A stretch of DNA of 64,000 bases from an uncultured Acidobacteriota bacterium (GCA_963757355.1 CAVWRG010000003.1:1541120-1605119); one strand, 5' to 3'; positions 14,823 through 35,395 are shown, counted from the stretch's first letter. Notes: generated from the sequence alone by a model not told the origin. Made by a program: numbers and translations.

Positions 14823-14840
14823 TCGTTACCGCAGTGACTA

Positions 14841-16252: not shown

Positions 16253-16320
16253 CTTCGTGCAGCGTAATGACGCCGGCGGCTTCTGTCAAACGGATGTTGC
16301 GCCGGTCTGGTCCGGGCCGT

Positions 16321-17941: not shown

Positions 17942-19819
17942 ATGACGACGTCTGCGTACGCTCGATTTTTTGCCGCGACCCTGATGCTCGGGGGCGTCGC
18001 GATGCCGGCGAGGGCTGAAAGACCCTTTAAACCGGCGTCTGTGACGCCGCCCTCCAAGCTCGATCACGCACTCCAGGGCAAGGCTCACCATAGTCCAAAC
18101 CACGCTCTGGACGTGATCGTCGGCGTCGTCCCGGGCAGTGGGGATGCCGTCCGCACCACGCTGGCGACCAAGGGCCGTCGCATTACCGGCAGCCATCCGT
18201 CGATCCACGCGTTCAGTGCGACGGTCGAAGTCCAAGACCTCGCCGATCTCGCGAGCGATCCGCGCGTCCTCTCGGTGTCGCTCGACGCAGTCGTCTCCGC
18301 GCATCAAACGGCGGTGGGGAGCCCGGACGCGCTCGTCACACTGGATGCACTGCGCACGATGGTAGGAAGCTCGTCGAGCGGCGTCACGGGGCAAGGGGTC
18401 ACCGTTGCCGTTATTGACTCGGGCCTGGCCAACGTGCCGGATCTGCACGCGCAGATTCGAGCGTTTTATGATTTCACGATCGATGGCACGCCGAGGGTGA
18501 CAGGCGCCTCGGACGCGTATGGGCACGGCACCCACCTCGCGGCGACCATCGCCAGTAGCGGCCAACAAAGCGGGCTGCTCTACCAAGGAATCGCCCCTGG
18601 CGTTCGCTTGATCGGCTTAAGAGTGTTGGACGGAACGGGCAATGGGACGACCAGTAATGTCATCAACGCACTGGCCTTCGCCACCGCCAACAAAGCGGCG
18701 CTCGGCATCGACATCATCAACTTGTCTCTCGGGCATCCCATTTACGAATCGGCGGCGACCGACCCGTTGGTCCAGGCGGTCGAAGCCGCCGTGCACGCAG
18801 GCATCGTCGTCGTCGCGTCGGCCGGCAATTCCGGAATCAATCCAGACACAGGCCTGCCCGGGTACGGCGGCATTACCTCACCCGGCAACTCACCGTCGGC
18901 GATTACAGTCGGAGCGGTCAACACGTCTGGCACGTTGGCACGAAGCGATGATGTCGTGGCGCCGTATAGCTCGAGCGGCCCCACGTGGGTGGATGGATTC
19001 GCGAAGCCCGATCTCGTCGCGCCGGGACACCGCCTGGTTGCAGACACGAGCAACGGCTACTTGTACAAGACATATCCGACCTGGCAGTTCAATGCGCCCG
19101 CCGGAGCGTCCGGTAATTACATCCGCCTAAGCGGTTCCAGCATGTCGGCCGCCGTGGTGAGCGGCGTGGCGGCGCTCGTGCTGCAAGCCAACCGGAGCGC
19201 TCTCGAGCCGGATGGGACGCCGATGGCGCCGTTGAATCCGTACGCGGTCAAGGCGATCCTGCAGTACACGGCCACGGCGTTGGCCGGCGTGGACCCGCTC
19301 ACTCAAGGCGCGGGCGAAATCAACGCGGCCGGCGCCATCGCGATGACGCGCGCCTTGGACACGCGTACGACGCCTTGGGCGGTCTCAGGGCTGACAACGA
19401 GCACGACGTTCGGGACCGAGACCGACCCGTGGTCCACCGACCTCATTTGGGGCGCGACGGAGCTGCAGAACCTGACGCCCGACGGCGCGGTTGCGGGCTC
19501 CAATATCGTATGGGGCACGAACATCGTGTGGGGCACGAACATCGTGTGGGGCACCAACATCGTCTGGGGCACGAATCTCGTCTCGGGTTCCAACATCGTC
19601 TGGGGCACCAACATCGTCTGGGGCACGAATCTCGTCTCGGGTTCCAACATCGTCTGGGGCACCAACATCGTCTGGGGCACCAACATCGTGTGGGGCACGA
19701 ACATCGTGTGGGGCACCAACATCGTCTGGGGTACCAACATCGTGTGGGGCACGAACATCGTCTGGGGCACTAACTCCGCCAGTTCTGCTGCGTCGTGTGG
19801 AATGGAGGTCTGTTTCTAA
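17942..19819 (+). CDS. secreted S8 (subtilisin-like) serine peptidase with C-terminal hexapeptide-repeat extension
   Basis: Signal peptide MTTSAYARFFAATLMLGGVAMPARA. Catalytic triad contexts VAVIDSGL (Asp), HGTHLAATIAS (His), SGSSMSAAVVSG (Ser). 15 NIVWGT-type hexapeptides follow. Confidence 0.9.
   Translation: MTTSAYARFFAATLMLGGVAMPARAERPFKPASVTPPSKLDHALQGKAHHSPNHALDVIVGVVPGSGDAVRTTLATKGRRITGSHPSIHAFSATVEVQDLADLASDPRVLSVSLDAVVSAHQTAVGSPDALVTLDALRTMVGSSSSGVTGQGVTVAVIDSGLANVPDLHAQIRAFYDFTIDGTPRVTGASDAYGHGTHLAATIASSGQQSGLLYQGIAPGVRLIGLRVLDGTGNGTTSNVINALAFATANKAALGIDIINLSLGHPIYESAATDPLVQAVEAAVHAGIVVVASAGNSGINPDTGLPGYGGITSPGNSPSAITVGAVNTSGTLARSDDVVAPYSSSGPTWVDGFAKPDLVAPGHRLVADTSNGYLYKTYPTWQFNAPAGASGNYIRLSGSSMSAAVVSGVAALVLQANRSALEPDGTPMAPLNPYAVKAILQYTATALAGVDPLTQGAGEINAAGAIAMTRALDTRTTPWAVSGLTTSTTFGTETDPWSTDLIWGATELQNLTPDGAVAGSNIVWGTNIVWGTNIVWGTNIVWGTNLVSGSNIVWGTNIVWGTNLVSGSNIVWGTNIVWGTNIVWGTNIVWGTNIVWGTNIVWGTNIVWGTNSASSAASCGMEVCF
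19502..19771 (+). repeat. in-frame 18-bp tandem array (15 units) encoding (NIVWGT)13 + (NLVSGS)2
   Basis: Read directly: AAYATCGTSTGGGGYACS units with synonymous variation. The two NLVSGS units are interspersed in the array. Confidence 0.95.
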
Positions 19820-20523
19820 TGGCGCTCGGGTCGCTCACCTCGAAGTTCGATCAGCCGCTGCCGTCACGCGAGCGAACGGTGGAAGCGCCGCACGACACAG
19901 GCGTTGCCACCTCTGATTGGCAGACGGCGCTGCCCGTCCTGATTGGCCAACGCGTCACCTTGCGTGAGCTGCGGACGGCGGATGCGCCGGCGCTCCTGGC
20001 GCTGCTGACCACGGAAGAAGTGACGCGCTTCATTTCCCCGCCGCCGACCACTGTGGACGGGTTCGAGCGTTTCATCGCGTGGGCGAACGCGCAGCGGGCC
20101 GCGGGCCAGTACATTTGTTTTGCCATCGTCCCTCACGGAAGCGAGACGGCGATTGGACTAATCCAGGTTCGGCAACTCGAGCGAGGTTTTGGAACGGCGG
20201 AATGGGGCTTTGCGCTGGGTCAGCCGTTCTGGGGCACCGGCCTCTTCGTCGAATCGGCGGAACTGGTGTTGGCCTTCACGTTCGACACGGTGGGTGTCCA
20301 CCGGCTCGAAGCGCGGGCGGCGGTGCTGAACGGCCGGGGAAATGGGGCGCTGCAGAAGTTGGGCGCATGTCAAGAAGCGGTCTTGCGGAAGTCCTTCTCA
20401 CGCAACGGACGTTACCTTGACCAGATGCTGTGGTCCATTCTCGAGGAGGACTGGCGCCTCGCGAAGGCCGTCTGGGGACCCTCTGCGACGTCTGACGACA
20501 AGGCGATCGCCGTCGTTCATTGA
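19819..20523 (+). CDS. GNAT-family N-acetyltransferase (RimJ/RimL-like)
   Basis: ATG overlaps the protease stop (TAATG). VTLRELRTADAPALLALL.., AIGLIQV.., GTGLFVESAELVLAFTFDTVGVHRLEARAAVLNGRGNGALQKLG. Confidence 0.85.
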   Translation: MALGSLTSKFDQPLPSRERTVEAPHDTGVATSDWQTALPVLIGQRVTLRELRTADAPALLALLTTEEVTRFISPPPTTVDGFERFIAWANAQRAAGQYICFAIVPHGSETAIGLIQVRQLERGFGTAEWGFALGQPFWGTGLFVESAELVLAFTFDTVGVHRLEARAAVLNGRGNGALQKLGACQEAVLRKSFSRNGRYLDQMLWSILEEDWRLAKAVWGPSATSDDKAIAVVH

Positions 20524-20528
20524 GATGG

Positions 20529-20553
20529 CGCTCGGCTGAAGCCTTCGCGCTAC
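20529..20553. repeat. family B repeat, single copy
   Basis: CGCTCGGCTGAAGCCTTCGCGCTAC matches the right arm of the 14756-14822 hairpin with one A/G difference. Located between convergent genes. Confidence 0.8.
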
Positions 20554-20572
20554 ACCGATCTGGAAACGGCTT

Positions 20573-23476
20573 TTAGTTCGCCGCGCCGATTTCGCGCTTC
20601 CGTCGCCCCGCGGAGCTCTCGAGCAGCGCGCGCAGCTCGTCGACTGAGACCGGCTTGGTGAGCACGCCGTCCATCCCGGCCGCCAAGCACTCTTGCACAT
20701 CTTGCGGCCGCGCGTTGGCCGTCATGGCGACGATCTCCGGCCTTGCATCCTTCGCGAACTCCAGGCAGATCCGCTGCGTCGCCTCCAGACCATCCATCTC
20801 GGGCATCTGCACGTCCATCAACACCAAATCATACGACTGGCGTCTGACCGCGCTGAGGGCTTCCTCGCCGTTGCCGACGATGTCGACCCGATACCCGAAC
20901 CGGCCGAGGATCACGGCAGCGACTCTCTGATTCACGACATTGTCCTCCGCGAGCAGAATGCGCATCGGAAGACGCTCACCCAACGTGGGATCGAACCGCT
21001 TCTCTGGTGACGGTTGTTCCGGGGCGGAATCCTTGGCGAGGACGGTCAGAAGCGCCTCGAACAACGCCAACGGCTTGATCGGTTTGAGCAGGGTTACCGA
21101 CCAGTCAGCGCGAGCGGCGTTGGTCAACTGTCCCACGGACGTCAGAAGGATCAGCGGCAGCGATTCAGCGCTGCGATGCTTCCGCAGTTCCCGCGTCAGG
21201 GTCACACCATCCATGCCTGGCATCTGCATATCCACCAGTCCCACGTCGAACGGATCGCCGCGGCGCACCCACTCCAGCGCCTCGCTGGCCTCCGTGGTCG
21301 TACGGATCGTCACACCCCACGGCGCCGACAGGGCGCTGACGATGTTGAGATTGGTGGGATTGTCGTCGACGAACAGCAGCCGGGTACCAGCCAGTTGTGG
21401 CTCCGGCCCACGAAGATAGGCTGGAGGTTGCGTCGCAGCGGCTTCGGCCACGACGGTGAAGGTGAACGTCGACCCCTGGCCCGCCGTGCTCTGCACGCCG
21501 ATCTCGCCGTCCAGCATTTCAGCGAGCCGTTTGCTGATCGCGAGTCCCAGTCCCGTGCCGCCGAAATGACGCGAGGTGGAACTGTCCACTTGACTGAAGG
21601 ATTTGAAGAGCCGATCCAGCCGGTCCTGCGGAATCCCAATGCCGGTGTCGCGGACGTCGAATCTCGTCTCGAACACGTTGCCGGCGCGCGGTTGGCTCGT
21701 CACCGATACGACGATCTCGCCGTCCGCCGTGAACTTCACGGCGTTGCTCAGCAGATTGACCAGAATCTGGCGGACGCGCGTCACGTCCGTCATCAGGCCC
21801 CACGGCGTGTCGTCGGAAACGAGGTACGCGAGATCCAGATTGTTTTCCGCCGCTTTGGGGGCCACCAGATCGAGCGCCGCTTCGACGCAATTGCGCAGGT
21901 CGAACGGCTGCTTTTCGAGCTGCAGCATCCCGGCCTCGATCTTCGAAAAGTCGAGGATGTCGTTGATGACGGCGAGCAACGATTCACCGCTGGACCGGAT
22001 CGTGCCGACGTAGTCACGCTGCTCGGGCTTCAGGTCGGTGTCCAGCAACACACTCGTCATGCCGATCACCGCATTCATCGGCGTGCGGAGCTCGTGGCTC
22101 ATGTTGGCGAGGAACTCGCCTTTGGCCTTGCTGGCCGCCTCTGCTGCGAGCTTGGCGCTGGACAGCGCTTCGGCGACCCGTCGCCGTTCCGTCACATCGT
22201 CGGCGATACCGGCGACGCGATGCACTTCGCCCGACTCGCTGCGGATCGGAAAGGCGCGATCGCGGACCCATCTCACAGAGCCATCCGGCCGCAGAATCCG
22301 GTACTCTTCGTCGTACGTGCCGAGCGTGCGCTTGGGCAAGGCGTCGAGCACGCGCTGACGATCGTCGGGATGGATGACGTCGAGAAAGGCGCCCGCCCCG
22401 CCGTAGACGCTTTCCGCCGAAGAACCGGAGATTTTCTCGTAGCTGGGACTGATGTAGATAATCCTGTCGGAAGGCGGATCGAACAACCAGAATGTCTGTT
22501 CGATGTTTTCCGCCAGCTGGCGGAATCGCCGCTCCGTTTCCTTGAGCTTGTCGTTGGCGCGATTCAGCTCTTCGGCCATCGCGGCGCGTGCTTCAGCCGC
22601 TTCCTGTTCTGACCGGGCGTGCACCGCTTCGAGCTCCTTGGTCTTGAGCTCGCGCGCGATCCGCTGATTTTCTTCCTGGAAGAATTTGCGCCGCAGCAAG
22701 GCGCGGACGCGCGCCTTCAGCACGGCCAGGTCGCTCGATTTGCCGACGAAGTCGTCCGCGCCGGCCTCCAGCCCGCGCGTCATGTCTTCCTTGTTCTCCC
22801 GCGCGGTCAGCATCAGGATGACCGCCGGCGTATCCAGAGCCCGCCGTGCTTCCACGATGCGCTGGCAGGCTTCGATGCCATCCATGTCCGGCATCACCAG
22901 ATCCAACAGCACTGCGTCGTACGTGCCGGACGAGAACAGTTGCAGCGCCTTGGCGCCGCTGATCGCGGTGTCGACCCGGTAGCCCTCGCTTCGCAACTCC
23001 TCGGTGAGGAACTCCAGATACGTCGCGCTGTCGTCCACGGCCAGCAGCCGGGCGCTCGACAGCGCCGACTCCAATCCAAACTGCAGCGACGTTTCCGACG
23101 ATGACTTGCGGAGCAGCGCGCGCACGCGGAGCATCAAGATGTCGTCGTCGACCGATTTGGAAATGTAGTCGTCGGCGCCGCTCTCCAGACCGTGAAGTTC
23201 GGCGGCGTCTGTTTCCTCGGCGGTCAACATGAGAATGGCGATGCCGCGCGTGCTCATGTTCATCCGGATGCGGCGGCACACTTCATCACCGCGAACACCC
23301 GGCAGGTAGAAGTCGACGATCACGAGATCCGGAACGCTCTGATTGAGCTCCTCGATTGCGCGTTCCGCCGTGGCCGCGCGGACGACTTCACAGCCTTCGT
23401 TTTCCAGCATCAACTGGAGCTTGAGGGCCTGCGTGTCCGAGTCTTCCACGATGAGAATCCGGCTGGCGCGCGCCAT
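20573..23476 (-). CDS. hybrid sensor histidine kinase with four receiver domains (REC-REC-coiled coil-PAS-HisKA-HATPase-REC-REC)
   Basis: REC1 [23 protein letters not shown]2 [47 protein letters not shown]-box [19 protein letters not shown]-boxes [21 protein letters not shown]3 [23 protein letters not shown]4 [21 protein letters not shown]. Confidence 0.92.
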
Positions 23477-24552
23477 CAGACCTTCTCAGCGGCCGAGACC
23501 AGATCGAGGACCCGAGGCGCGATCTCTCTGAGAGGCAGGCATTCGCAAGCGGCTCCACGGTCTACCGCGGCTTTGGGCATGCCATACACGACCGCCGTCG
23601 ATTCGTGTTCCGCGACCGTATGACCTCCCGCGCGGCGCAGCTCGAGGAGCCCATCGGCGCCGTCATCACCCATACCGGTCAGCAGGACGCCGAGCCCCGA
23701 ATCGCCCAGACTCCGCGCCATCGATTGAAACATCACAGTGGCTGACGGCCGTTGAGCCGAGACGGCAGGATCCTGACTCAGCCGAATGCGCTCGCCCTCG
23801 AGTTGAAGATGGAAGTCGGGCGGGGCCAGGTAAACCGTTCCAGGAATCGGAAGTTCGCCGCTGTGCGCAATGACCGCGCGACACGGCGTCACACTTTCCA
23901 GCCAGGACGCGAACCCGAGGAGAAAGGTGGGCATCATGTGCTGCACCAAAAGTACCGGCAGCGGGAAATCCTGACCCAGGTCGGTCAACACCTGAACCAC
24001 GGCATTGGGGCCACCCGTGGATGCGCCGATTCCAAGAATGCGAAACGGCCGGCCGGGCGTCGTCTGAAAGCTCAATGTGGCCGGGGGCGATTGGACCGCT
24101 CGACTAACGGTTGGCGTGGAGTCACTGAATGCCCTCTGACGCACAACTTTGACCTCGCTCATGATCGCCAGCTGCGTGCAGAGGGTTCGTGCCAGGCGCT
24201 CATACTCGGCGCGCGTCGTGCCGACGGGCTTTTCCACGACCGCCAGCGCGCCGGCGCGCAAGGCGTTCATGGTGATTTTCAGATCATCCGATTCCACGCT
24301 GGCCGAGCAGACCACAATCGGCGTCGGCTTGTCCCGCATGATCCGGCGTGTGGCTTCGAACCCATTCATTCCTGGAAGCCGGATGTCGAGCGAGATGACG
24401 TCTGGCGAGACGCGTGGAAGCATCTCGAGCGCTTCCTCCGCGCTGGAGGCCACAGCCACGACCTCGAGACGCGGGTCGCCGCCGATGATGTGGCGGAGGA
24501 GCTGCTGGATCACCTCCGAGTCTTCGACGATCAGGACGCCGATCGTTTTCAT
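23476..24552 (-). CDS. cheB: chemotaxis response regulator protein-glutamate methylesterase
   Basis: REC (VLIVEDSEVIQ.., LDIRLPGMNG) plus methylesterase (ILGIGASTGGPNA, LLVQHMMPTF, GMGDDGADGL). Start overlaps the cheA stop. Confidence 0.92.
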   Translation of the reverse strand: MKTIGVLIVEDSEVIQQLLRHIIGGDPRLEVVAVASSAEEALEMLPRVSPDVISLDIRLPGMNGFEATRRIMRDKPTPIVVCSASVESDDLKITMNALRAGALAVVEKPVGTTRAEYERLARTLCTQLAIMSEVKVVRQRAFSDSTPTVSRAVQSPPATLSFQTTPGRPFRILGIGASTGGPNAVVQVLTDLGQDFPLPVLLVQHMMPTFLLGFASWLESVTPCRAVIAHSGELPIPGTVYLAPPDFHLQLEGERIRLSQDPAVSAQRPSATVMFQSMARSLGDSGLGVLLTGMGDDGADGLLELRRAGGHTVAEHESTAVVYGMPKAAVDRGAACECLPLREIAPRVLDLVSAAEKV

Positions 24553-26783
24553 AAAATCTGCCGGATCGTTTCGAGCAGCTCCTGCTGTTCGAACCTCCGC
24601 TTGACGATATACGCGTCGGCGCCGAGCGTCATGCCGCGGGCCTGATCCTCGGGGTTTTCGACCGACGAGACAATGACGACCGGAATCTTCGCCAGGCGCG
24701 GATCGCTTTTCATCTCTTCGAGCAGCCCGAAACCATCCAGCCGCGGCATCTGCAAATCGCTGATCACGAGTCCCACAGGGCTGGCGCGAAGATAATTCAG
24801 CGCGTCGACACCGTCCACGGCGATCGCCACCTGGTAGCCATGCGCTTCCAGCACGCTCTTTTCCAGCGTCCGGGTCGTCAGTGAGTCGTCGACGACGAGG
24901 ATCTCACGCGACCTGCTGGCGTCCGTCGGCGCTTCCGTCTGTGTGGCGAGCACGAGCGCGTTCGAAGACTGCTGGAACCCCTCGACGATCTCGGCCGGGT
25001 TGAGCACCAGGCAGACGGAACCATCCTCGAGCAGAATGCCACCGGCAATCCGTGCGTTGCCATCAGCGGGGGCCGGCAGCTCCTTGATGATCGCCTCTCT
25101 TTCAGACAGAAACGCGTCCACGGCCACCGCCAGACGCTGAATTCCCGTTCGCATGATCATCACGCACAGCGTGTTCTGATTCACGCTGACTCTGGGTTCA
25201 TCCGTGTTGAGAAGGTGGGCGAGGCTCACCACCGAGACCGGCTGCCCATCGACGGTGATCACGGATTTGGATTCCACGGTGTGCACGTCGGTGAGCTTCA
25301 CCCGGTGCAGCCGTTCGATCCCATGAAGAGGAATCGCCAACGTCCGATTCTGGCAGCTCACCAGCAGCAGCCGATGGCTGGAGATCGAGAGCGGCGCCGA
25401 GATCGCCACACGCGTTCCGCCGAGTGTTCCGGGGCCGATGTCGACGGTGCCCTGCAGCCGCGCGATCGCTTGGGCGACGACGGAGAGCCCCATGCCGCGC
25501 CCGGACAACTCGGTGACGGAACGCGACGTCGAAAAGCCAGGGAGAAGAATCAGCCGCATCAATTCTACCGCGGGCCTGGCCGCAACCTCAGATGCGCCGA
25601 TCAGCCCTTTGCGGATCGCGATTTCAGCGACCTTGGCCAGGTCTATTCCTCTCCCATCGTCCTCAACGGCGATATTCAGCCGGTTGCCCCGGACTGCGAG
25701 CACCAGATCGATCCGTCCTTCAGGGTGTTTCCCTTTGCTTGTGCGCTCCGCTTCCGATTCGAGCCCATGGCTGACGGCATTGCGCAGCATGTGCATGACC
25801 GGATCCTTCAACACCTGAAGAACGAGGCGGTCGGCTTCCACCTGCCAGCCGGAGACGTGCAGCTCGACGGCTTTGCCCGCATCCCTCGCGAGATCGCGAA
25901 CCATTTTTCGGAAGCCGTCGAACACATTCTCGGCCGGCACCATCCGCGCCTGACGGACGTCGCGCTGCAGCTCACCCGCCAGCGACCGCAGCGTCCACGC
26001 GTTTCTCGCCTGAAGTTGGACCGCCGTGCCGACCTGCTTGGTCAGGAGATGGATCTGATGATCGAGGTAGTTCACGTAGCGCGCCGCGACGGCCAGGTCG
26101 GGCGAGGAGTCGAGCCTTTGGAACACTCGTGCGCCCGCCTTTCGAACGCGATTGCGTTCAGCGGCTGTGTCGGACAAATCCCGGCTCAGTTGTCGCAGAT
26201 GGCGTGTGACGTGGTTCTGACGAAGACTCTCGGTCAGCAGTTGTCCCGCGGAGCTGACGATGCGGTCGAGACTCTGCGCATTCAACCGCAGCGTGTCGAC
26301 CTGAGCGAGAGGAGCCGACGGCGCCGACGCAACTGGTCTCACGACGTCGATGGCCTCTGCGGGAGCGCTCACGCTGACCGGCGTATCTGAAGGTGTCCCC
26401 AGCAGCGCATCGATCGCCTCGAGCGCCCGAACGGGTTCGGCGGGCTTTCCCGCGCCGCCAACCGACGACGCCAGCCAGTCTTCACTCGCATCCAGCGCCT
26501 GGTAAATAACCCTGATGATCGGCTTGTCGAGGCCCAAGACGCCTGCGCGAATCCGCGAGAACAGGGTTTCCAGTCGGTGCGCCAGATTTTCGAGCGGACG
26601 GAGGTCAACGGCGCGAGCCGCGCCTTTCAGGCTGTGCGCACGGCGGAACACTTCGTCCAGATCCGGTGCGGCCGGCGCAGCATCCGCCGAGTCGAATGCC
26701 GCCAGCATCTCGCGGATCCGCTGAACGTGTTCGTTGTGCTCAACCTGAAACGTCGCGAGCAGCCGCTGACGGAGATCCTTCAC
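24549..26783 (-). CDS. cheA: chemotaxis histidine kinase CheA with C-terminal receiver (CheA-CheY hybrid, WspE-like)
   Basis: Hpt (FRRAHSLKGAARAV), HATPase (DPVMHMLRNAVSHG, EDDGRGID, GRGMGLSVV), CheW-like domain, REC (ILVVDDSLTTR..SDLQMPRLDG). Confidence 0.92.
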   Translation of the reverse strand: MKDLRQRLLATFQVEHNEHVQRIREMLAAFDSADAAPAAPDLDEVFRRAHSLKGAARAVDLRPLENLAHRLETLFSRIRAGVLGLDKPIIRVIYQALDASEDWLASSVGGAGKPAEPVRALEAIDALLGTPSDTPVSVSAPAEAIDVVRPVASAPSAPLAQVDTLRLNAQSLDRIVSSAGQLLTESLRQNHVTRHLRQLSRDLSDTAAERNRVRKAGARVFQRLDSSPDLAVAARYVNYLDHQIHLLTKQVGTAVQLQARNAWTLRSLAGELQRDVRQARMVPAENVFDGFRKMVRDLARDAGKAVELHVSGWQVEADRLVLQVLKDPVMHMLRNAVSHGLESEAERTSKGKHPEGRIDLVLAVRGNRLNIAVEDDGRGIDLAKVAEIAIRKGLIGASEVAARPAVELMRLILLPGFSTSRSVTELSGRGMGLSVVAQAIARLQGTVDIGPGTLGGTRVAISAPLSISSHRLLLVSCQNRTLAIPLHGIERLHRVKLTDVHTVESKSVITVDGQPVSVVSLAHLLNTDEPRVSVNQNTLCVMIMRTGIQRLAVAVDAFLSEREAIIKELPAPADGNARIAGGILLEDGSVCLVLNPAEIVEGFQQSSNALVLATQTEAPTDASRSREILVVDDSLTTRTLEKSVLEAHGYQVAIAVDGVDALNYLRASPVGLVISDLQMPRLDGFGLLEEMKSDPRLAKIPVVIVSSVENPEDQARGMTLGADAYIVKRRFEQQELLETIRQIL

Positions 26784-28480
26784 GTGCGATACCTCTCAAC
26801 ACTCTTATTGAGTTGTTGCCCGAGACCGGTGAGGTTCGTCGCCGCCTTCTCCAGTTGACTCGTGCTGACGGCGGTCTGGTCCGCCGCCTGCCGAATGTTC
26901 TTCAACGCCTGCGTGACTTGATCGAAGCCGATTTGCTGCTGACCGGTCGCCGCGGTGATCTGCTGGAACGCCTGAATGCTGGAGCTCAGGCTGTCCGCCA
27001 TGTGTCTGATCGTTCGCTCGACGACGTCCGACTGCTTCTTGCCGGAGTCGACGCGCTTCACGACTTCTTCGGTCAGCATGACGGACGTGTGGATGCCCTT
27101 CTGAATGTCGCCCAGAATGGATCGCACCTTGCCCGTCGCCTCTTTCGCCTGATCGGCCAGGTTCTTGATCTCGTTGGCGACGATCGCAAACGTCCGGCCT
27201 TGCTCGCCCGCAGCGGCGGCTTCGATCGCGGCATTGAGCGCCAGCAGATTCGACTGCTCCGCGATGTCGGTGACGGTGGCGATGATCTCGCCGACGGCCT
27301 GCGTCTTCTCGCTGAGCGTGACGATGTTTTCTGCGACCGTCTCAGCCTGCTCCTGAATGGCGTCCATGACCTTCGTGCCGTTCTGCGCGGCCTCCAGGCC
27401 CTGGCTCGTCGCGGTGGACGCCGCTTCAGCCGCCGCGGCCACTTGTCTCGATCGTTCGGCGATCTGATTGCCGGACTGGCTGATCTCTTCCATCGTGGCC
27501 GTGGTTTCCTGCACCGCCGCGGCTTGCTCGCTGGTGCCGGCGGCCTGTTCTCTCACGGACGCGACGATCTCGACGACGGCGGCGTTCAGCGACTCGGCGG
27601 CCGCCCGTGTCTGTGAGACGTTGTCTCGCAGCCCGCCGAGCATGTCGTTGAAAATGAGCCCGAGTTGACCCAACTCGTCGGTGCTGTCGATGGTCAGTTT
27701 GTCCTGGCGCAGATTCCCATCTGAGATGTGCACGGCGAGGCCGGTGACGCCCGTCACCGACTTGCGCAGGCCGCCCACGAATACAAACGAGACGAGGACG
27801 GCGGCCGCCATTCCGGCCACGCTCAGTCCCGTCGAGAGAGTCTTGGAAGCCGCTTCGTAGCCTTTGGCGGCGTTCATGGACTCCGCCGTGAAGCTCTCGA
27901 TCTCAGCGACCATCTTGGCTACCTGGGCGTCGATATCGGCGGCTTCTTTTTCGACCGGGACGCTCAGGCGATCCAGCTCACCCGGCTTGCCTGCCGCCGC
28001 CAATCCGATGGCCTGATATGCCACGGTCGCAAAATCCTGCTGCTCCTTCTGGAGCGCCTTGACCTCGTCGCCGAACCGTTGGTACTCCGGCGTGATGCGG
28101 GCGGCCTGTTCCACAGCGCGATTCGCGCTCCCAAGGTCGGCGTCGAACTGTTGCGTGAGCTTCTCGAACGCGGCGGCGGCGCGGTCGCGCTGAAGCCGAG
28201 CCTCCTCGCCAGTCTCTGCTCCAAGCTTCAAGATGCGTTCGATCACGATGTGCTCTTGGAGCGAGTTGGTGTCGAGTTGCGTGATCAGTTTCGTCACCGG
28301 CAAATCGGCGTCGGCAACTTCGACCATCTCGCGTGCCATGTTCCCGAGCGCGCTGTAGTTGTATACGGCGTTCACGAGCAGGAGCAGCACAAGCAACGAC
28401 GCGAGTCCGCCGATCTTTCGCGCGAGCGTCCATTTCAATTCAAATCGCTCACTCGAGCTTCTGCCTGTGCCCACTGCCAT
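26780..28480 (-). CDS. methyl-accepting chemotaxis protein (TM-sensor-TM-HAMP-signalling domain)
   Basis: Conserved hairpin tip IAEQSNLLALNAAIEAAAAGEQGRTFAIVANEIKNLA. GGAGGA Shine-Dalgarno about 6 nt upstream of the ATG. Confidence 0.92.
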   Translation of the reverse strand: MAVGTGRSSSERFELKWTLARKIGGLASLLVLLLLVNAVYNYSALGNMAREMVEVADADLPVTKLITQLDTNSLQEHIVIERILKLGAETGEEARLQRDRAAAAFEKLTQQFDADLGSANRAVEQAARITPEYQRFGDEVKALQKEQQDFATVAYQAIGLAAAGKPGELDRLSVPVEKEAADIDAQVAKMVAEIESFTAESMNAAKGYEAASKTLSTGLSVAGMAAAVLVSFVFVGGLRKSVTGVTGLAVHISDGNLRQDKLTIDSTDELGQLGLIFNDMLGGLRDNVSQTRAAAESLNAAVVEIVASVREQAAGTSEQAAAVQETTATMEEISQSGNQIAERSRQVAAAAEAASTATSQGLEAAQNGTKVMDAIQEQAETVAENIVTLSEKTQAVGEIIATVTDIAEQSNLLALNAAIEAAAAGEQGRTFAIVANEIKNLADQAKEATGKVRSILGDIQKGIHTSVMLTEEVVKRVDSGKKQSDVVERTIRHMADSLSSSIQAFQQITAATGQQQIGFDQVTQALKNIRQAADQTAVSTSQLEKAATNLTGLGQQLNKSVERYRT

Positions 28481-28502
28481 TTACATCCTCCTGCCGTCCG
28501 GT

Positions 28503-29042
28503 TTATGCGACTGCGAGACCGAGGCTCGACAGCACCGCGTTCGTGTCGATCAGGATCACGGTGTCGGCGGTGAGCGCCTTGACGAAGCGCGAGCCAGGGA
28601 TAGTGGCCACGGCATTGCCGGTCGACCCTTTTCCGGTCGACACCAGTTGTGCCGGGTCGATCTGGCGAACTTCGTCGATCGTCTCGATCCTGAGCCCGAT
28701 GGCGCGACCCTTCTGGCGCACCATCACCACGTATCCGCCCGCATCGTCGTCCCCGGCGGGGAGCTCCAGTATCCGGCGGAGATCCGCGACCGCCCTGATG
28801 TCGCCGCGGACGTTCGTCACGCCAAGAAGCGCCGGCGGAGAACCTGGAACGGCGGTGCAGCCGTGGTACGGAAACACTTCAGAGAGCGCCGACAGCTCGA
28901 GGCCATAACGTTCCGTCCCCAGGCCGAAGACCAGCACCGCGATGGTCGTGGATGCCGTGCGGTCGGCCTGCCGTCGGGCCAATTGCTGCGCCCGGCGCAG
29001 ATAGACCTCGTCGAGCACGCGTTGATCCTGGGTCGCCTTCAT
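28503..29042 (-). CDS. cheW: CheW-like coupling protein
   Basis: ATG 29042 overlaps the cheR stop (ATGA). VLVFGLGTERYGLELSALSEV.., LLGVTNVRGDI.. is the CheW fold pattern. Confidence 0.88.
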   Translation of the reverse strand: MKATQDQRVLDEVYLRRAQQLARRQADRTASTTIAVLVFGLGTERYGLELSALSEVFPYHGCTAVPGSPPALLGVTNVRGDIRAVADLRRILELPAGDDDAGGYVVMVRQKGRAIGLRIETIDEVRQIDPAQLVSTGKGSTGNAVATIPGSRFVKALTADTVILIDTNAVLSSLGLAVA

Positions 29043-30451
29043 TTTTGCCAGAGGCCCACGTGCATGTCGGCGAGCTGACCAAGGTCGTCCACGGTGAGGC
29101 CGTCGGCGTCCGGAATTTGCTGGTTCTTGTCCAATCCGGACAGCAGCCGCTGAACGTTGCGGAGCGATTGCATTGCGCTGTCGCGGCGACCCGTCTTGGC
29201 GAGCAGCAGCGCGAGATGGTAGTGCGCCAGCACGAAAGCGCGATCCAGATAGATCGCCCTTCGGAACGCCTGCTCGGCGTCCGGATGATCTCTCATCTGT
29301 TCCATGATCAGCGCCTGATAGAAATGCACGACCGGGTTCAGCCGATCGTGATCGAGCAGCTGCGCGCACGCGCGCGCCGCGTCGATCCAGTTCCCTTCGT
29401 CGGCGAGCTGTCGGATCTGCTCCAGGCCCGTGGGCGCCGGCGTCGTGGGCCACTGATCCGGGGCGGGTCGCGACGAATCAGGAACGGCCGGCAGCACGGG
29501 TGGCGACCACGGCTCCTGCACTCCTGGCGTGGATGGCCACGGTGCCGGTGGCGTCGAGGCAGAGTAGTGGGTGGTGGCTGTGGGGCCATCGCCGTTCTTC
29601 TGATATAGCGTGGCGCCCGGCACGCTCACGGTCCGATATGCGCGAAAGACTTCGGTGTTCGACTCCGCGTGACCGACCGCCAGCCACCCTCCGTCGACGA
29701 GGCACTCATGAAAGCGACCGAGGATGCGCGCGATGACGTCCCAGTCGAAGTAGATCATCACGTTGCGGCAGAGGATCAGATCGAGTGCCGCGATGCCGTG
29801 GACAACCGAGGGATAGGGGTGCTCAACCAGATTGTGGTACTGAAAGGACACCCCGTCTTTGACGAAGGGTCTGACGACCCATGATCCGCCAGACGGCGAG
29901 AACCATTCGCGCTTGACCTCGTCGGGCGTCGATCGCAGCGCGCGTTCGTCGAACTCGCCGCGCGCGGCCCGTGCGAGAAACGTCTGGTTGATATCCGTGC
30001 CCAGGATCTGGACGTCCCACCCTGCGAGCTGACTCGCGAAGTGCTGCTTCAGGAGAATGGCCAGGGTGTAAGGTTCGGCCCCGGTCGCGCAACCAGCCGA
30101 CCAGATACGCAGCGTGCGACGGGCGCGGTTTCGTTCGATGAGCTCCGGAATCGCGACGTCACGAAGCCCATCGAACTGTTCGGTGTGGCGGAAAAAGTAC
30201 GTTTCGCCGATCGTGAGTTGACCGATCAGCACGTGACGCTCGGACTCGCCTGCCTCGCGGTCTTTCAGCAGACCGAGATACGCTCTGCAGCCGTTCAGTG
30301 TCAGGAGAGAGAGGCGGGCGCTGATGCGCGAGGCCAGGTCGTTGTCCTTGTCTGCGTAATAGGCGAGCCCGGTCGACTCGATGAGATGCTGCTTGAGCGA
30401 CGGGTAGTCGGGGTCGAGGAGGAGCGGATGCACGGGAGCCGAAACGCTCAC
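29039..30451 (-). CDS. cheR: CheR methyltransferase fused to C-terminal TPR region (WspC-like)
   Basis: GTG 30451 overlaps the upstream cheW stop (GTGA). ETYFFRHTEQF, LRIWSAGCATGAEPYTLAILL, DLILCRNVMIYFD. The C-terminus has TPR-like helices (AEQAFRRAIYLDRAFVLAHYHLALLLAKTGR). Confidence 0.9.
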   Translation of the reverse strand: MSVSAPVHPLLLDPDYPSLKQHLIESTGLAYYADKDNDLASRISARLSLLTLNGCRAYLGLLKDREAGESERHVLIGQLTIGETYFFRHTEQFDGLRDVAIPELIERNRARRTLRIWSAGCATGAEPYTLAILLKQHFASQLAGWDVQILGTDINQTFLARAARGEFDERALRSTPDEVKREWFSPSGGSWVVRPFVKDGVSFQYHNLVEHPYPSVVHGIAALDLILCRNVMIYFDWDVIARILGRFHECLVDGGWLAVGHAESNTEVFRAYRTVSVPGATLYQKNGDGPTATTHYSASTPPAPWPSTPGVQEPWSPPVLPAVPDSSRPAPDQWPTTPAPTGLEQIRQLADEGNWIDAARACAQLLDHDRLNPVVHFYQALIMEQMRDHPDAEQAFRRAIYLDRAFVLAHYHLALLLAKTGRRDSAMQSLRNVQRLLSGLDKNQQIPDADGLTVDDLGQLADMHVGLWQK

Positions 30452-30957
30452 GACAGCTCTTGGTCGATGTGACGAAGCCGCGTGCTTTCGGTTGCGTGGA
30501 ACTGAGCCAGGATCTGTTGTTCCTTCTCCAGGAGCAGCCGTTCCAGTGAGAGCAGGTGGACGGCACCGCTGCCCGTCGCCGTCAGCCGGCCGTCGACGCA
30601 GCCGTTGAAGGAATCCGATTCCGCAATCGGCAGCACACCGTCGAACGGAATGGAGACGATTCCCGTGACCCGGTTCACGAGGAGAGCGAGCGGCAGCGTG
30701 CCGCCGCGAATAATCACGAGCGGGGTGTGCAAGTCGAGCGGGTCCTGCGGCAACCCGAGCAAACCGGCGATTCGCACGACTGGGAGCGCCGTGCCTCGAA
30801 GATTCAGAAACCCCTCGAGGATCGACGGCATGCACGGCGGACGCGACAACGCGGCCATCGGCACGATTTCGCTGACCGATTCCAGCCGGAGGCCGAAGGG
30901 CTGGCCGGCGAGCTCGAACAGGCAGATGCGAAATCCATCCGGTTGGGAGGTTGACAT
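30448..30957 (-). CDS. cheW: CheW-like coupling protein (second copy)
   Basis: ICLFELAGQPFGLRLESVSEIVPMA.., GFLNLRGTALPVV.. Confidence 0.85.
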   Translation of the reverse strand: MSTSQPDGFRICLFELAGQPFGLRLESVSEIVPMAALSRPPCMPSILEGFLNLRGTALPVVRIAGLLGLPQDPLDLHTPLVIIRGGTLPLALLVNRVTGIVSIPFDGVLPIAESDSFNGCVDGRLTATGSGAVHLLSLERLLLEKEQQILAQFHATESTRLRHIDQELS

Positions 30958-30969
30958 TCGAGCACGCGG

Positions 30970-31605
30970 CTAGATCGACAGCCGGTGAGCTGACTTGTTC
31001 TTGGCGTACTCGTCCAGTTCCTTGGACAGCACGTCGTAGCAGGCCGGGCAAATGCCGTGCGTGAAGTGCGCGTCGCTATGCTGCACGAGATACGTATCGA
31101 CCTGCTGCCAGAAGTTCTCGTCCGATCGGATGCTCTTACAGTAGGAACAGATTGGAAGCAGGCCGCTCAACTGCTTCACCTGAGAGAGCGCCAGTTGCAG
31201 TTCCTCTACGCGGGCCGCGAGTCCTTCCTGCAATCCGAGGACGCGAGCGCCGACGCTCACGCGCGCCAGCAGCTCGCCTTGGTGACATGGCTTGACGAGA
31301 TAGTCGTCGGCTCCCGCCTCGAGGCCCGCGACGACATCCTCGCGGGCGTCGCGGCTGGTCAAGAGAATGAGATAACGGTGCGCCTTGGGCGTTTCGCTCC
31401 GGACGAGCCGGCAGACATCGGGGCCATCCAGCTTCGGCATCATCCAGTCGAGGATCGCGAGCGATGGCGAATCCGGCCGCCGCAGGATCTCCAGCGCTTC
31501 GGCTCCGTCGCGGGCCATCGTCACTTCAAACCTGTCCGGCGTCAGCGTGCGCGCCAGCACTTCAGCGGACAAGCGATCGTCGTCCGCAATCAGAATCTGC
31601 ATCAC
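30970..31605 (-). CDS. response regulator with C-terminal Cys-rich (CxxC...HxxCxxC) module
   Basis: REC: ILIADDDRLSAEVL.., LDWMMPKLDG, ADDYLVKP. A coiled linker, then LPICSYCKSIRSDENFWQQVDTYLVQHSDAHFTHGICPACYDV. Confidence 0.85.
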   Translation of the reverse strand: MMQILIADDDRLSAEVLARTLTPDRFEVTMARDGAEALEILRRPDSPSLAILDWMMPKLDGPDVCRLVRSETPKAHRYLILLTSRDAREDVVAGLEAGADDYLVKPCHQGELLARVSVGARVLGLQEGLAARVEELQLALSQVKQLSGLLPICSYCKSIRSDENFWQQVDTYLVQHSDAHFTHGICPACYDVLSKELDEYAKNKSAHRLSI

Positions 31606-32009
31606 GACCTCACGGGCGGCAGCTCGCGCAATTCGGCCACGAGCTGTTCGACTTCGAATACGAGCTTGGCAAACTGAGGATCGAGGTCTGCCACATCTCC
31701 GCGCTGCGCCATCTCTTCGAGCGCAGAGGCTGCCGCGATCACGCCAAAGGCGGATAAATTGCCTGCGCTGCCTTTCAACGCGTGGGCATCGCGTCGGACG
31801 GCGTCAAGACGACGCGTGGTGACCGCTGCCTCGATGGCCGTCATCTGCGCGGCGTAGTCCTCGAGAAAGAGGCCGAGCAGGTCGGCGATCAGCGCCTCGT
31901 CGTTGCCGAGCCGCTTCCGCATCTCGCGGATGTCCATTCGTTCGGGCGATGTCGGAATCTTCATGTGACGGTAGAGTGACGAAACTGCACACTGCTGCAA
32001 CGCCTCCAC
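31602..32009 (-). CDS. Hpt (histidine phosphotransfer) domain protein
   Basis: LLGLFLEDYAAQMTAIEAAV..RRDAHALKGSAGNLSA (HxxKG phospho-His context). Stop overlaps the RR start. The start could instead be ATG 31964 (MKIPTS..). Confidence 0.75.
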   Translation of the reverse strand: MEALQQCAVSSLYRHMKIPTSPERMDIREMRKRLGNDEALIADLLGLFLEDYAAQMTAIEAAVTTRRLDAVRRDAHALKGSAGNLSAFGVIAAASALEEMAQRGDVADLDPQFAKLVFEVEQLVAELRELPPVRS

Positions 32010-32081: not shown

Positions 32082-32555
32082 TCACCGGCGACCCAGGAGA
32101 TCGCGCACCGTGGCATGCCAGACCGGTTGACCGAACCCGTACAGGGCAAGCAGAGCCGCGACGACTGCTGCGGCTTTGATGCTCTCGATGCCTTGCGGCG
32201 TCCAATAGACGTCGGCGAGCCGCAGCCACATCGCGAACTCGTCCAAGGTGAGACCGAGCGCGATGCCGAAGACGATGGCGATGCGCAGGTGCCAGGCGGG
32301 GGCGCGGGTCGCCAGCGCGGCGAAGCCGGTCGCCATCAGCAGCAGAATGCCCCAGAAGAGATGATGAATGTGCAGGCCGCTTTTGGTGATCACATACCGG
32401 AACGGGCCGTGCGGAAAGATCTGATAGCGGATGATCGCCGTGATCACGCGCAGCACCGCGAACGTCGCGAGGAAGCTGCCGAGCGTGCGGAGCGCGACGC
32501 GCCGGCCGAGATCGAGATTCCGATAGTGGTGCCGCAGACGCAGGTGTCCAGTCAC
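32082..32555 (-). CDS. hypothetical integral membrane protein (4 predicted TM segments)
   Basis: 157-aa ORF with hydrophobic stretches LGSFLATFAVLRVITAII, HHLFWGILLLMATGFAAL, IAIVFGIALGLTL, AAAVVAALLALYGF. No family recognised. Confidence 0.55.
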   Translation of the reverse strand: MTGHLRLRHHYRNLDLGRRVALRTLGSFLATFAVLRVITAIIRYQIFPHGPFRYVITKSGLHIHHLFWGILLLMATGFAALATRAPAWHLRIAIVFGIALGLTLDEFAMWLRLADVYWTPQGIESIKAAAVVAALLALYGFGQPVWHATVRDLLGRR

Positions 32556-32939: not shown

Positions 32940-34247
32940 TTATGGATGTTTGTCCACGTGGTGGCGCAGCCACGGCGCGAACGTGACGTTGAGGCCACTC
33001 ACACTCGAGCAGCCGGCGGCGCCGGGCCCTGACGGGCATCCCCAATAGTTCTCGGTCGCATTCACGCCGCCCGCGCCGAGATTCGCGACGCCGATGTGAT
33101 CGTCGTTCACGATGTCGTTCACGTGCAGATCGACATCGACGCCCGTGGGATCGCTCACCACCACAGCGACCGCCTCGCGCTCGATCACATTGTGCGAAAT
33201 GATCGTTCCCGTGATCGCAGAGCCGACGACGTTGCCGCTGCCGTCGCGGCCCGACGCGATGTTGATACCAGTCGGTCCGGGCGTTGCGGTGTCCTCGGTA
33301 TCAGCGCCGTTGCCGGCGATGTAGTTGCCGATGATCTGATTGTCGTTGAGATTTTGGCCTGGCGCGTGGCTGTGCAGCGCGACTCCTGGCAACCCGTTGT
33401 CGACCAGGCGATTGCCGATCACGACGTTGGCGTACGTCGCCGTGCCGGGGGCTGGTGTGAAGATCCCCACGCCAGCGCCCGCACCCTCGATGGCGGTCCC
33501 ATTACGAGCCGACTCATTGCCTGCGATGGTGTTGTGATACACGCCGTTGCCGTGCGGCGCGAAGATCAACGGGACGTGCGATGCGAGCGTGATGCCGCAG
33601 TCGAACACGTTGTCGCGGACGGTGTTGCCGCTAATCAGGTTGTCGTGCGTCGGCCCCGAATCGTCCGTCAGCAGAATGCCGCCAGAATTGTGTTCGATCA
33701 GATTCGTGGCGACAGTCGAATGATCGACGCCGCTCAGATGGATGCCTTCGCCGCAGTCGAAGTCTTCGCCGGCGTGCGAATCCGGCGGAGCCACCTCTGG
33801 ACAGGTGCCGGCAGACGCGTTCAGGCCCAGGTTGTTCGAAACGATCCGATTGTCGCGCACCGTCACGTCAGACGCGTTGGACACGATGATGCCTTCGAGC
33901 TCGGCGTTCTTCACTGTAAAGCCGGTGATGACGATGTGCGCGAGGCCGGGATGGTCCAGGCCGTCCACGTTGATGCCATTGAGCCGGCCGCTCGCATCGA
34001 TGATCGTGTTGTCTGCGTTTTCGCCGACGAGGGCCAGCGCGCGGTCGAGCACGACGTCCTCGGCGTACGTGCCGTGTGCGACCTGAATCGTGTCGCCCGG
34101 CGCAGATGCGCCGACGGCGGCGTTGATCGTGGAGAAGCATCCCGATCCCCCGCCAGGCCTGACGCAGCGCGTCGTCGCGGCGGCGGCATGACCAGCTCCG
34201 AACGCCAAGCTCGCAACGATGCCGATGAGCAGCGCGTGATTTCTCAT
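32940..34247 (-). CDS. secreted right-handed parallel beta-helix repeat protein (NosD/pectate-lyase-like fold)
   Basis: Signal peptide MRNHALLIGIVASLAFGAGHAAA. GDTIQVAHGTYAE, then repeated ..I..N.I..N.. coils (VTVRDNRIVSNN, NLISGNTVRDNV, NVVIGNRLVDNG, NQIIGNYIAGNG). Confidence 0.75.
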   Translation of the reverse strand: MRNHALLIGIVASLAFGAGHAAAATTRCVRPGGGSGCFSTINAAVGASAPGDTIQVAHGTYAEDVVLDRALALVGENADNTIIDASGRLNGINVDGLDHPGLAHIVITGFTVKNAELEGIIVSNASDVTVRDNRIVSNNLGLNASAGTCPEVAPPDSHAGEDFDCGEGIHLSGVDHSTVATNLIEHNSGGILLTDDSGPTHDNLISGNTVRDNVFDCGITLASHVPLIFAPHGNGVYHNTIAGNESARNGTAIEGAGAGVGIFTPAPGTATYANVVIGNRLVDNGLPGVALHSHAPGQNLNDNQIIGNYIAGNGADTEDTATPGPTGINIASGRDGSGNVVGSAITGTIISHNVIEREAVAVVVSDPTGVDVDLHVNDIVNDDHIGVANLGAGGVNATENYWGCPSGPGAAGCSSVSGLNVTFAPWLRHHVDKHP

Positions 34248-34381
34248 GGGAGACTTCCTCTTCTGCGATGGGGTGAACGGCCGCGCGAAGGTCGGGTCCG
34301 GGGGCCCGCCGGGCGAGGAGTATAGCTGAAGATTTCCTAAGGAAACCACGGTGTTCGTACGGCGACCACTCGTGGTTGGTC

Positions 34382-35395
34382 CTATTTGATCCCAACCACC
34401 ATCGAGTCGGGTCCGATGAGCGGCTCGAGACGCGTTGCGGAAAATCCGACGTCCTTCATCCAGGCTGCGCAATCGGCGCCGGTGTAGTCGAACCCCCCTG
34501 GAGTTTCGATGAGCATGTTCAGGCTCATCATCAAGCCGAACGCATTCTTGGACCGATCATCGTCGATGATGGCCTCGTACACGATCAACGCGCCGCCTGC
34601 CGGGATCGCCTCGAACGCCTTGCGGATCAGCATCTTCTTCGTGGGCAGATCCCAGTCGTGCAGGATGTGACCCATCATCACGACGTCCGTTTTCGGAAGA
34701 TCGTGATCGAAGAAGCTGCCCGGGACGAAGGACACGCGGTCCGCGACTCCTGCGTCCGTGGAGTACTCCTTGAATACGGGCGCCACCTCTGGCAGGTCGA
34801 ACCCGGCGCCACGAAGGTGTGGGTTCGCCAGTGCGACTTGCACGGCAAGATCTCCCTGCGCAGTGCCGACATCGACGAACGTGTGGTAGTCCTTCCACGG
34901 AAAGGTGCGCGCAATCATCATGTTGGCCCCGCGGCTGAGGCCCGTCATCGCGGCAAGGAATTCCTTGAGCCGCGCCGGATCAGCGTAGAGCATCTCGAAG
35001 AGACCCGCGCCACCCGATTTGATCTCGTTTTGCGGCTGTCCAGTACGTAGCGCTTCGGTGAGGTGACCCCAGAACGGGTAAAGACGCGCGTTCGCCATCT
35101 CGAGGATGCCGCCGATGTAGGACGCCTTCTTTCGGTCGAGGAACAAGTCGGTCTCGGGCGTGTTCCCGTAGCGGTCGCCCTCGCGCTGCAAGAAGTTGAG
35201 CGCCACCAACGTGTCGAGAAAATCGCGCGCCGCGCGGGAATGGAGACCGAGGCGTCCGCTGACGACATCGAATGGCTCAGGACCGTTCGACAGCTCGGTG
35301 AAGACGCCCATTTCGATGGCGCTCAACAGCGTCTTTGAGGGCCAGAACGCCAGGCCCGTTTGCAGGATCTTCTCGGGTGTCGGTTGCTCGTGCAT
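34382..35395 (-). CDS. class I SAM-dependent O-methyltransferase (family-2 OMT with N-terminal dimerisation domain)
   Basis: [26 protein letters not shown] (dimerisation helix). [12 protein letters not shown] (SAM motif I). [27 protein letters not shown]. Confidence 0.85.

Follow-up and report, generated by a model that had tools for sequence, protein, structure and literature searches.

We describe an operon of nine genes in a DNA stretch of 64,000 nt (hereafter the window) from an uncultured Acidobacteriota bacterium (GCA_963757355.1 CAVWRG010000003.1:1541120-1605119), which encodes a chemosensory array together with a hybrid histidine kinase (HK), a stand-alone Hpt phosphotransfer protein and a response regulator with a cysteine-containing tail. 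The signal would run from the chemoreceptor (methyl-accepting chemotaxis protein, MCP) to CheA, from CheA to the first receiver (REC1) of the hybrid kinase, through its HisKA domain to its receivers REC3 and REC4, and from there via Hpt to the Cys-tail regulator. We give this flow, each step of which draws on homology and gene linkage, a probability of roughly 60%. Coordinates are positions in the window, and domains were called from a listing of open reading frames (ORFs) and Pfam. In order of transcription the features are:

31602..32009 (-): stand-alone Hpt phosphotransfer protein; Pfam Hpt 3.2e-13; histidine motif HALKG
30970..31605 (-): Cys-tail regulator, 211 aa; REC (4-116), long helix (109-147) and C-terminal Cys/His tail; Pfam matches REC only
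31021..31164 (-): Cys-tail module of this regulator, residues ~148-195, LLPICSYCK..R..(26 aa)..HGICPxC
30448..30957 (-): CheW coupling protein 1; Pfam CheW 1.7e-22
29039..30451 (-): CheR with C-terminal TPR; Pfam CheR 1.1e-49, TPR_2/TPR_16/TPR_19 at 352-441
28503..29042 (-): CheW coupling protein 2; Pfam CheW 1.6e-23
26780..28480 (-): transmembrane chemoreceptor; Pfam HAMP and MCPsignal
24549..26783 (-): CheA-REC; P1 Hpt, HATPase, CheW-like P5 and C-terminal REC (Pfam)
23476..24552 (-): CheB, N-terminal REC and methylesterase; Pfam CheB_methylest 2.9e-56, NCBIfam CheB above cut-off
20573..23476 (-): hybrid kinase, 967 aa; four REC, PAS, HisKA and HATPase (Pfam)
22622..23476 (-): input module of the hybrid kinase, REC1-REC2, aa 1-285
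20573..22579 (-): transmitter of the hybrid kinase, PAS-HisKA-HATPase-REC3-REC4, aa ~300-967

Six of the eight junctions between these genes, read in the sequence, overlap: five by 4 nt (GTGA/ATGA) and one by 1 nt (TGATG). The GTG start of CheR at 30451 overlaps the CheW1 stop and the ATG of CheW2 at 29042 overlaps the CheR stop. At the remaining two junctions 12 and 22 nt separate the genes, and in the longer gap an AGGAGG precedes the MCP start. The nine co-directional genes form a translationally coupled operon; a previous sequence-only reading of this DNA had described nine coupled minus-strand genes with these domains, and ORFs, Pfam matches and junctions bear the description out. The operon terminates against a convergent GNAT gene at 20523. 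A scan for sigma-70 promoters found no sites, and all terminator-like hits were intragenic. The Hpt ORF opens at GTG 32009, with ATG 31964 as the likelier true start (~120 aa). Hydropathy places two transmembrane segments (~22-44 and ~216-240) in the MCP around a periplasmic domain of ~170 aa. The receivers were aligned to the E. coli CheY sequence, and acidic pocket, D57, T/S87 and K109 are kept in all seven. The H-x-x-K-G histidine is present in P1 of CheA and in the stand-alone Hpt. With HisKA, HATPase and receivers, this Hpt and a terminal receiver protein, all parts of a hybrid-kinase relay are present in the window. Upstream of Hpt a further minus-strand gene (32082-32555) encodes a protein of 157 aa, unmatched in Pfam, for which four membrane segments are predicted; it ends 75-120 nt upstream of Hpt and is possibly part of the same transcript as the operon. 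Beyond it lie a gene for an apparently exported beta-helix protein of the NosD-like type (secreted; 32940-34472) and one for an O-methyltransferase (34382-35566).

Action of CheA on the hybrid kinase is suggested by the conservation of the kinase's position and of its N-terminal part. Relatives of the che genes were collected by a scan for CheA, and the resulting loci (L numbers) were searched by tblastn with each of the nine proteins; censuses and homologue counts were restricted to the best 80 loci. CheB is followed by a receiver-headed kinase in all five evaluable closest clusters. The related clusters, most of them from metagenome-assembled genomes (MAGs), with the identity of their CheA to that of the window and the proteins encoded after CheB where noted, are:

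L081, Chthoniobacter MAG, CheA 50% (closest che core): REC-REC-HisKA-HATPase-REC-REC, separate Hpt, then REC
L082, Rhodospirillaceae MAG, CheA 48%: REC-REC-HK
L083, Alphaproteobacterium, CheA 46%
L084, Bauldia, CheA 40%: REC-REC-PAS-PAS-HK-REC, then REC-EAL (16070-17230)
L085, Terriglobia MAG, CheA 41%
L086: REC-HK-REC
L093, Rhodospirillaceae MAG, CheA 43%: receiver protein and HK-REC
L096, Terriglobia MAG, CheA 38%
L122, more distant: REC and REC-REC-HK-REC-Hpt, fused

The REC-EAL protein of Bauldia is an output that degrades cyclic di-GMP (c-di-GMP) on a che core of the same type. A receiver-headed kinase lies within 4 kb behind CheB in 11 of 53 evaluable CheA-CheB loci, and relay-type Hpts occur among the che loci in L081, L107, L122, L132 and L159. 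The design with four receivers plus Hpt is thus uncommon, yet not confined to the window.

When the whole kinase was used as a query, the best 80 loci were all non-che kinases matched via the transmitter. Since these whole-protein matches were transmitter-driven, the kinase was compared as four segments. The best matches of the REC-REC head (1-285) are all encoded directly after CheB (L081 59%, L082 56%, L084 49%, L119 44% and L122 41%), whereas non-che kinases reach at most 31% over comparable length. The other parts show the reverse: the HisKA-HATPase core is 64-68% identical to non-che hybrid kinases and ~30% to che-linked ones, and the C-terminal REC-REC pair 50-52% and ~30%, respectively. 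The PAS segment matches L020 best (52%), followed by L044 (46%) and L057 (41%), and both of the latter loci also encode an Hpt and a Cys-tail regulator. The hybrid kinase is a chimera of a post-CheB-type head and a non-che relay transmitter. The best NCBIfam matches of the transmitter are BarA, TorS, ArcB and LuxQ, all under the cut-offs; Pfam finds HisKA at 6.6e-24 and no match to HWE_HK. D57 of REC2 is retained in the window kinase as well as in L081, L082 and L084. In 59 of the 80 closest transmitter homologues an Hpt lies ~1 kb past the kinase core, either fused or as a small separate ORF. The window kinase stops after REC4 without an Hpt, and the operon's only other relay-type Hpt is its first gene.

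For the second half of the relay, the neighbourhood of the Cys-tail regulator was surveyed in 80 species-representative genomes from Acidobacteriota, Verrucomicrobiota, Planctomycetota, Myxococcota and others. At 49 of the 80 loci the regulator gene has an Hpt no more than 6 kb away, at 27 directly upstream, and at 50 a relay-kinase core occurs within 6 kb. In contigs with called genes Hpt stands directly before the regulator and a hybrid kinase is its neighbour: a CHASE4 kinase in L178, an MHYT kinase in L180 (where Hpt is a REC-Hpt), a kinase with fused Hpt in L181 and L182, and a 4HB-PAS kinase with Hpt in L057. The host genome itself yields only two significant relay-type Hpt matches, and both adjoin a Cys-tail regulator gene. 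The second is the C-terminus of a dCache-HAMP-HK-REC-REC-Hpt paralogue, divergent from the gene of a 65%-identical Cys-tail regulator. The putative pairing of Hpt with the Cys-tail regulator is well supported by this linkage.

The paralogous regulator, which lies outside the window (contig C3:2638861-2639474; L184 ~5862-6475), changes frame between its CxxC and HxxCxxC halves, reading ...ICSYCKRIRGDDQ in one frame and continuing ...WQQVEGYIAEHSEAQFSHGICPACY in another, and is either a pseudogene or carries a single-base assembly error. The kinase beside it is intact. Two GGDEF genes (C3:2627861-2632541) lie 3-7 kb from this paralogous pair, and one of them matches GGDEF partially at two separate places in the same frame.

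The tail itself had no sequence match in Pfam, NCBIfam or PDB, and a literature search by motif returned no relevant paper. A search restricted to the tail retrieved 513 proteins, nearly all of ~200 aa with REC and tail and one with PAS and tail. Across 52 homologues C153, C156, H183, C186, C189, W166, K157 and R160 are invariant, and the CxxC / CPxC spacing suggests a zinc-ribbon or rubredoxin-type knuckle. An AlphaFold2 model of the full-length regulator reached a pLDDT of 84 overall, with a confident REC, the long helix 109-147 and 56-79 in the tail, and a tail-only model 67.5. Foldseek found nothing better than E=3.4 for the tail-only model in the PDB, and these weak matches were disregarded.

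Joint occurrence of Hpt and Cys-tail regulator with che genes is rare but recurrent (L179, L081). In L179, a metagenome contig, an Hpt 58% identical to that of the window (the Hpt of L178 shares 49%) precedes a Cys-tail regulator (75%), and the two head a cluster of CheW-CheR(TPR)-CheW-CheA-CheB-REC-HK-REC. The che genes of L179 are just 26-44% identical to those of the window, so that this che association is an independent one. CheA of L179 (13068-15849) is called as three genes (Hpt, HATPase and REC), its CheB has no receiver and no MCP gene lies between CheW and CheA; the system is either truly split or shows frameshifts of a long-read assembly. In L081 (197-16984) two complete relays flank one che cluster: PAS-HK-REC-REC-Hpt and a Cys-tail regulator upstream, REC-REC-HK-REC-REC, Hpt and REC downstream. 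A gene for a BBE-type FAD (flavin adenine dinucleotide) oxidase lies on the opposite strand between regulator and che cluster.

As the kinase head resembles post-CheB kinases only, the transmitter family bears Hpts and the regulator family is Hpt-adjacent, the order CheA, kinase, Hpt, regulator is favoured. This is the wiring that the sequence-only reading had proposed, and head orthology together with the Hpt counts of the transmitter (59/80) and regulator (49/80) families argues for it. The association of kinase, Hpt and regulator with a che core, suggested at first from the window, was likewise recovered in other genomes.

The first transfer has a precedent in the Che3 system of Rhodospirillum centenum, where CheA3 (CheA-REC) phosphorylates REC1 of CheS3, a REC-REC-PAS-HWE kinase, as established by biochemistry and genetics (PMC3868531). 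CheS3 phosphorylates the cluster's own regulator CheY3, and the action of CheA3 on REC1 switches this two-component pair off (PMC3868531; PMC4436063). The receiver of CheA3 serves as a sink for phosphate, and the regulator of the cluster is not a target of CheA3 (PMC3868531). In the window, the single transmembrane MCP, with two CheW as couplers and CheR-TPR and CheB for adaptation, would set CheA autophosphorylation. Phosphorylated CheA would pass its phosphate to its own C-terminal receiver as a sink, to CheB and to REC1 of the hybrid kinase, possibly also to REC2. Phosphorylation of REC1 would tune the PAS-HisKA-HATPase transmitter; this input, inhibitory in CheS3, may have either sign here, and the PAS domain may supply a second, cytoplasmic input as has been proposed for CheS3. 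The transmitter would then phosphorylate REC3/REC4, which would pass the phosphate to the stand-alone Hpt and on to the Cys-tail regulator. The true output would be the long helix and metal-knuckle-like tail (CxxC...HxxCxxC) of the latter: the phosphorylated regulator may dimerise along the helix and so reposition two metal-knuckle tails. In a broader reading, to which we would give even odds, a domain swap at the REC2/PAS linker grafted the chemoreceptor array as a sensor onto a pre-existing kinase-Hpt-regulator relay; a four-step relay would then be driven by the one chemosensory system that this non-flagellated acidobacterium has, and the multi-phylum CxxC...HxxCxxC tail would represent a novel two-component output class that serves Hpt relays exclusively.

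The host is a non-flagellated soil acidobacterium of the Vicinamibacterales, its RpoB being 90% identical to that of a MAG of this order, which agrees with the Acidobacteriota origin assumed in the sequence-only reading; the genome (6.55 Mb, 4 contigs) is 100% complete. By tblastn the CheA/MCP/CheW set of the window is the sole one in it, beside an unrelated CheB/CheR-like pair on contig C2. FHIPEP/FlhA is absent from the genome, and a PilM homologue is encoded. Since no flagellar export gene is found, flagellar taxis was ruled out as the output of the operon.

A tree of the CheA core (IQ-TREE) places the window CheA in a clade with 100/100 support together with Azospirillum ramasamyi, two Rhodospirillaceae MAGs, Bauldia, Chthoniobacter and two Terriglobia MAGs. 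Annotated Azospirillum records from a plasmid/chromid search have CheA identities of 39-41%. A. ramasamyi, the nearest named relative (CheA 40%, CheB 53%, CheR 51%), has the order CheW-CheR(TPR)-CheW-MCP-CheA(REC)-CheB, a receiver protein and then HisKA-HATPase-REC. The order CheW-CheR-CheW-MCP-CheA-CheB-receiver/kinase is common to the clusters of this clade where the sequence is complete. CheA proteins of members of the same genus, family or order (G001, G004, G012, G016, G021, G022, G029 and G032) fall into other clades, one of which also contains Lysobacter and other gammaproteobacterial clusters. Among 40 relatives an orthologue was found only in G002, of the same genus (92%). The distribution is therefore patchy, which is consistent with horizontal acquisition of the che cluster. 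In loci of the same genus (L167 of G001) and the same family (L166, L168; G016 and G021) CheA is of another type, which falls with the Lysobacter-like gammaproteobacterial clusters; repeated exchange of chemosensory systems has therefore taken place within the family.

An unlikely alternative makes CheA the first half of the relay, with phosphate passing from the P1 histidine to the receiver of CheA, to Hpt and to the Cys-tail regulator; the 967-aa kinase would then be a second, PAS-sensing input or a phosphatase on the same Hpt. CheA-REC, Hpt and regulator formally make up a complete His-Asp-His-Asp chain with all sites intact, Hpt and regulator stand at the operon head far from the kinase gene, and the same pair heads a different che cluster in L179. 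However, the conservation of the REC-REC head behind CheB is left unexplained, and in R. centenum the CheA receiver acts as a sink, with no supply of the cluster regulator by CheA3. The transmitter family nearly always has its own Hpt and the window kinase has no other, and most che clusters of the window clade are without an Hpt yet retain the kinase.

Two independent systems could also share one transcript: a PAS kinase acting through Hpt on the Cys-tail regulator, beside a che core whose only targets would be CheB, the receiver of its own CheA or a regulator encoded elsewhere. Trios of kinase, Hpt and Cys-tail regulator without che genes occur in many genomes, including the paralogue in this one, and none of the 80 Cys-tail regulator loci has che neighbours. 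We nevertheless hold this arrangement to be quite improbable. The only sensors of the kinase are one PAS domain and two N-terminal receivers, and these receivers are orthologous to che-linked ones only. Moreover, the overlaps at six of eight junctions tie the genes together, the che core, the only Che set of the genome, would be left without an output, and L081 and L179 show this combination again.

It seems very unlikely that the operon is a Wsp-type surface-sensing system with c-di-GMP as the end output via an unlinked diguanylate cyclase. The composition of the core is that of Wsp, and the genome encodes about nine GGDEF proteins, none of them in the window. Pfam detects no GGDEF in the nine operon genes or their flanks, and a direct c-di-GMP output was ruled out on this ground. 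Wsp genes are arranged wspA(MCP)-B-C-D-E-F-R; the order in the window is Azospirillum-like, and its CheA is separate from the putatively Wsp-type gammaproteobacterial clade (Lysobacter, Thiohalobacter). Steering of type IV pili or gliding motility in the manner of Frz is scarcely credible: CheA-REC fusions are known in FrzE-type systems (cited in PMC3868531) and the genome has the PilM homologue and no flagellar export gene, but the window neighbourhood holds no pilus or motility genes, and the CheA, with only one Hpt, falls among developmental Che3-like rather than myxobacterial clusters.

Several points weigh against the preferred flow from CheA through the hybrid kinase to Hpt and the Cys-tail regulator. 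Linkage shows partnership and not the direction or sign of phosphotransfer, and CheA-REC, Hpt and regulator are on paper a full relay without a second kinase. At none of the 80 census loci did at least three kinds of che gene occur near the Cys-tail regulator; the che link is thus uncommon and may be a by-product of how operons are packed. The Hpt counts come from a home-built hidden Markov model, which divergent Hpt domains may escape. In G002, the one sister-species assembly with the cluster, the locus L171 (C6:312000-328936) is collinear with window 14822-27778 at ~90-95% nucleotide identity, but synteny breaks at window 27778, inside mcp, and unrelated sequence follows to the contig end. 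Nowhere in G002, an indel-rich assembly that is 80% complete, were CheW2, CheR, CheW1, the Cys-tail regulator or Hpt recovered. The G002 region contains dozens of 1-nt indels at similar density within and outside the che genes, so that pseudogenisation is indistinguishable from assembly error. Finally, the window departs from Che3 in several respects. Its kinase is of the HisKA type, whereas CheS3 is HWE-class; its REC2 keeps the Asp, whereas that of CheS3 is degenerate (A191); it has two C-terminal receivers and a separate Hpt, making a four-step relay, whereas CheS3 is without either; and its terminal regulator bears a Cys tail, whereas Che3 uses the single-domain CheY3. The host is an acidobacterium, unlike that of Che3, and the likeness to Che3 is one of published architecture.

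The operon is the only chemoreceptor-based pathway in a genome of the Acidobacteriota, which are hard to study genetically, and flagellar swimming is an unlikely role for it. It points to modular outputs: a Che3-like core can be connected to a two-step kinase as in R. centenum, to a kinase and REC-EAL as in Bauldia or to a full Hpt relay as in the window. It also places a large, uncharacterised family of response regulators with conserved Cys/His tails in a setting that can be tested; we consider the Cys-tail output domain the most interesting part. Nothing known is overturned, the step from CheA to a kinase having been published since 2013.

Compared with known systems, the core of the window (MCP, two CheW, CheR-TPR, CheA-REC and CheB) has the composition of Pseudomonas Wsp, whose output is the REC-GGDEF protein WspR; the window has none. 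The sequence-only reading had likened the cluster to Wsp with its GGDEF output replaced, and as regards core composition and lack of GGDEF in the cluster this holds. Gene order and CheA clade, however, are of the Azospirillum type: the order CheW-CheR-CheW-MCP-CheA-CheB-kinase differs from that of Wsp and matches A. ramasamyi, and the CheA clade lies apart from the gammaproteobacterial clusters sampled. The cluster is Wsp-like in core composition only. Cluster 2 of Halomonas titanicae, known from a bioinformatic description only, also combines a Wsp-like core with phosphorelay elements (Hpt-REC-REC) in the output, but a diguanylate cyclase forms this output, and the cluster lacks a second kinase (PMC5907407).

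With the BarA, TorS, ArcB and RcsC phosphorelays the window shares a HisKA-HATPase-REC(-REC) transmitter, an Hpt and a terminal regulator encoded alongside. The differences are that the scores stay under the equivalog cut-offs, that two receivers tying the kinase to the chemoreceptor array stand in place of the sensor, and that Hpt is a separate gene at the opposite operon end. The closest che core is that of the uncharacterised L081, with identities of 50% for CheA, 59% for CheB, 55% for MCP and 59% for the kinase head. L081 has two kinases and two Hpts, whereas the window has one kinase with a head of the L081 downstream type and a transmitter nearer to the L081 upstream kinase (42% vs 31%).

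Clusters with CheR-TPR are tied to the ACF (alternative cellular function) class (PMC3447774), a class of Wuichet and Zhulin as used in PMC3447774 and PMC10782961. In such clusters ~40% of the output regulators carry HisKA and HATPase, the commonest type, some with HPT or an extra REC (PMC3447774). The ACF traits are present in the window: a CheA with C-terminal REC and no detectable P2 (Pfam finds only Hpt, HATPase_c, CheW and Response_reg), a CheR-TPR and a multidomain regulator/kinase as output. By architecture the operon is probably an ACF-type chemosensory system, and the CheA tree groups it with Che3-like clusters.

The sequence-only reading knew the proposed wiring from no characterised system; this has to be corrected, since the step from CheA-REC to a REC-REC-PAS kinase is the one shown in R. 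centenum Che3 (PMC3868531) and kinase outputs are the commonest in CheR-TPR clusters (PMC3447774). Che3 and the window both have one MCP, two CheW, CheR, CheB and a CheA with C-terminal REC, in both the second kinase begins with REC-REC-PAS, and in both a receiver protein is encoded in the same cluster. The transfer from CheA to REC1, the CheA receiver sink and the step from kinase to regulator are demonstrated for Che3. The clade of the window CheA includes the Azospirillum cluster, and R. centenum belongs to the Azospirillum clade. The operon is a variant of the wiring worked out in R. centenum and not a new kind of system. What is new here is a CheS3-like head with a relay-type transmitter exchanged in, along with the Hpt and the uncharacterised terminal regulator that this brought into the system. 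By architecture, R. centenum Che3 is the nearest system to have been characterised; by tree and gene order, the che core groups with Azospirillum-type clusters.

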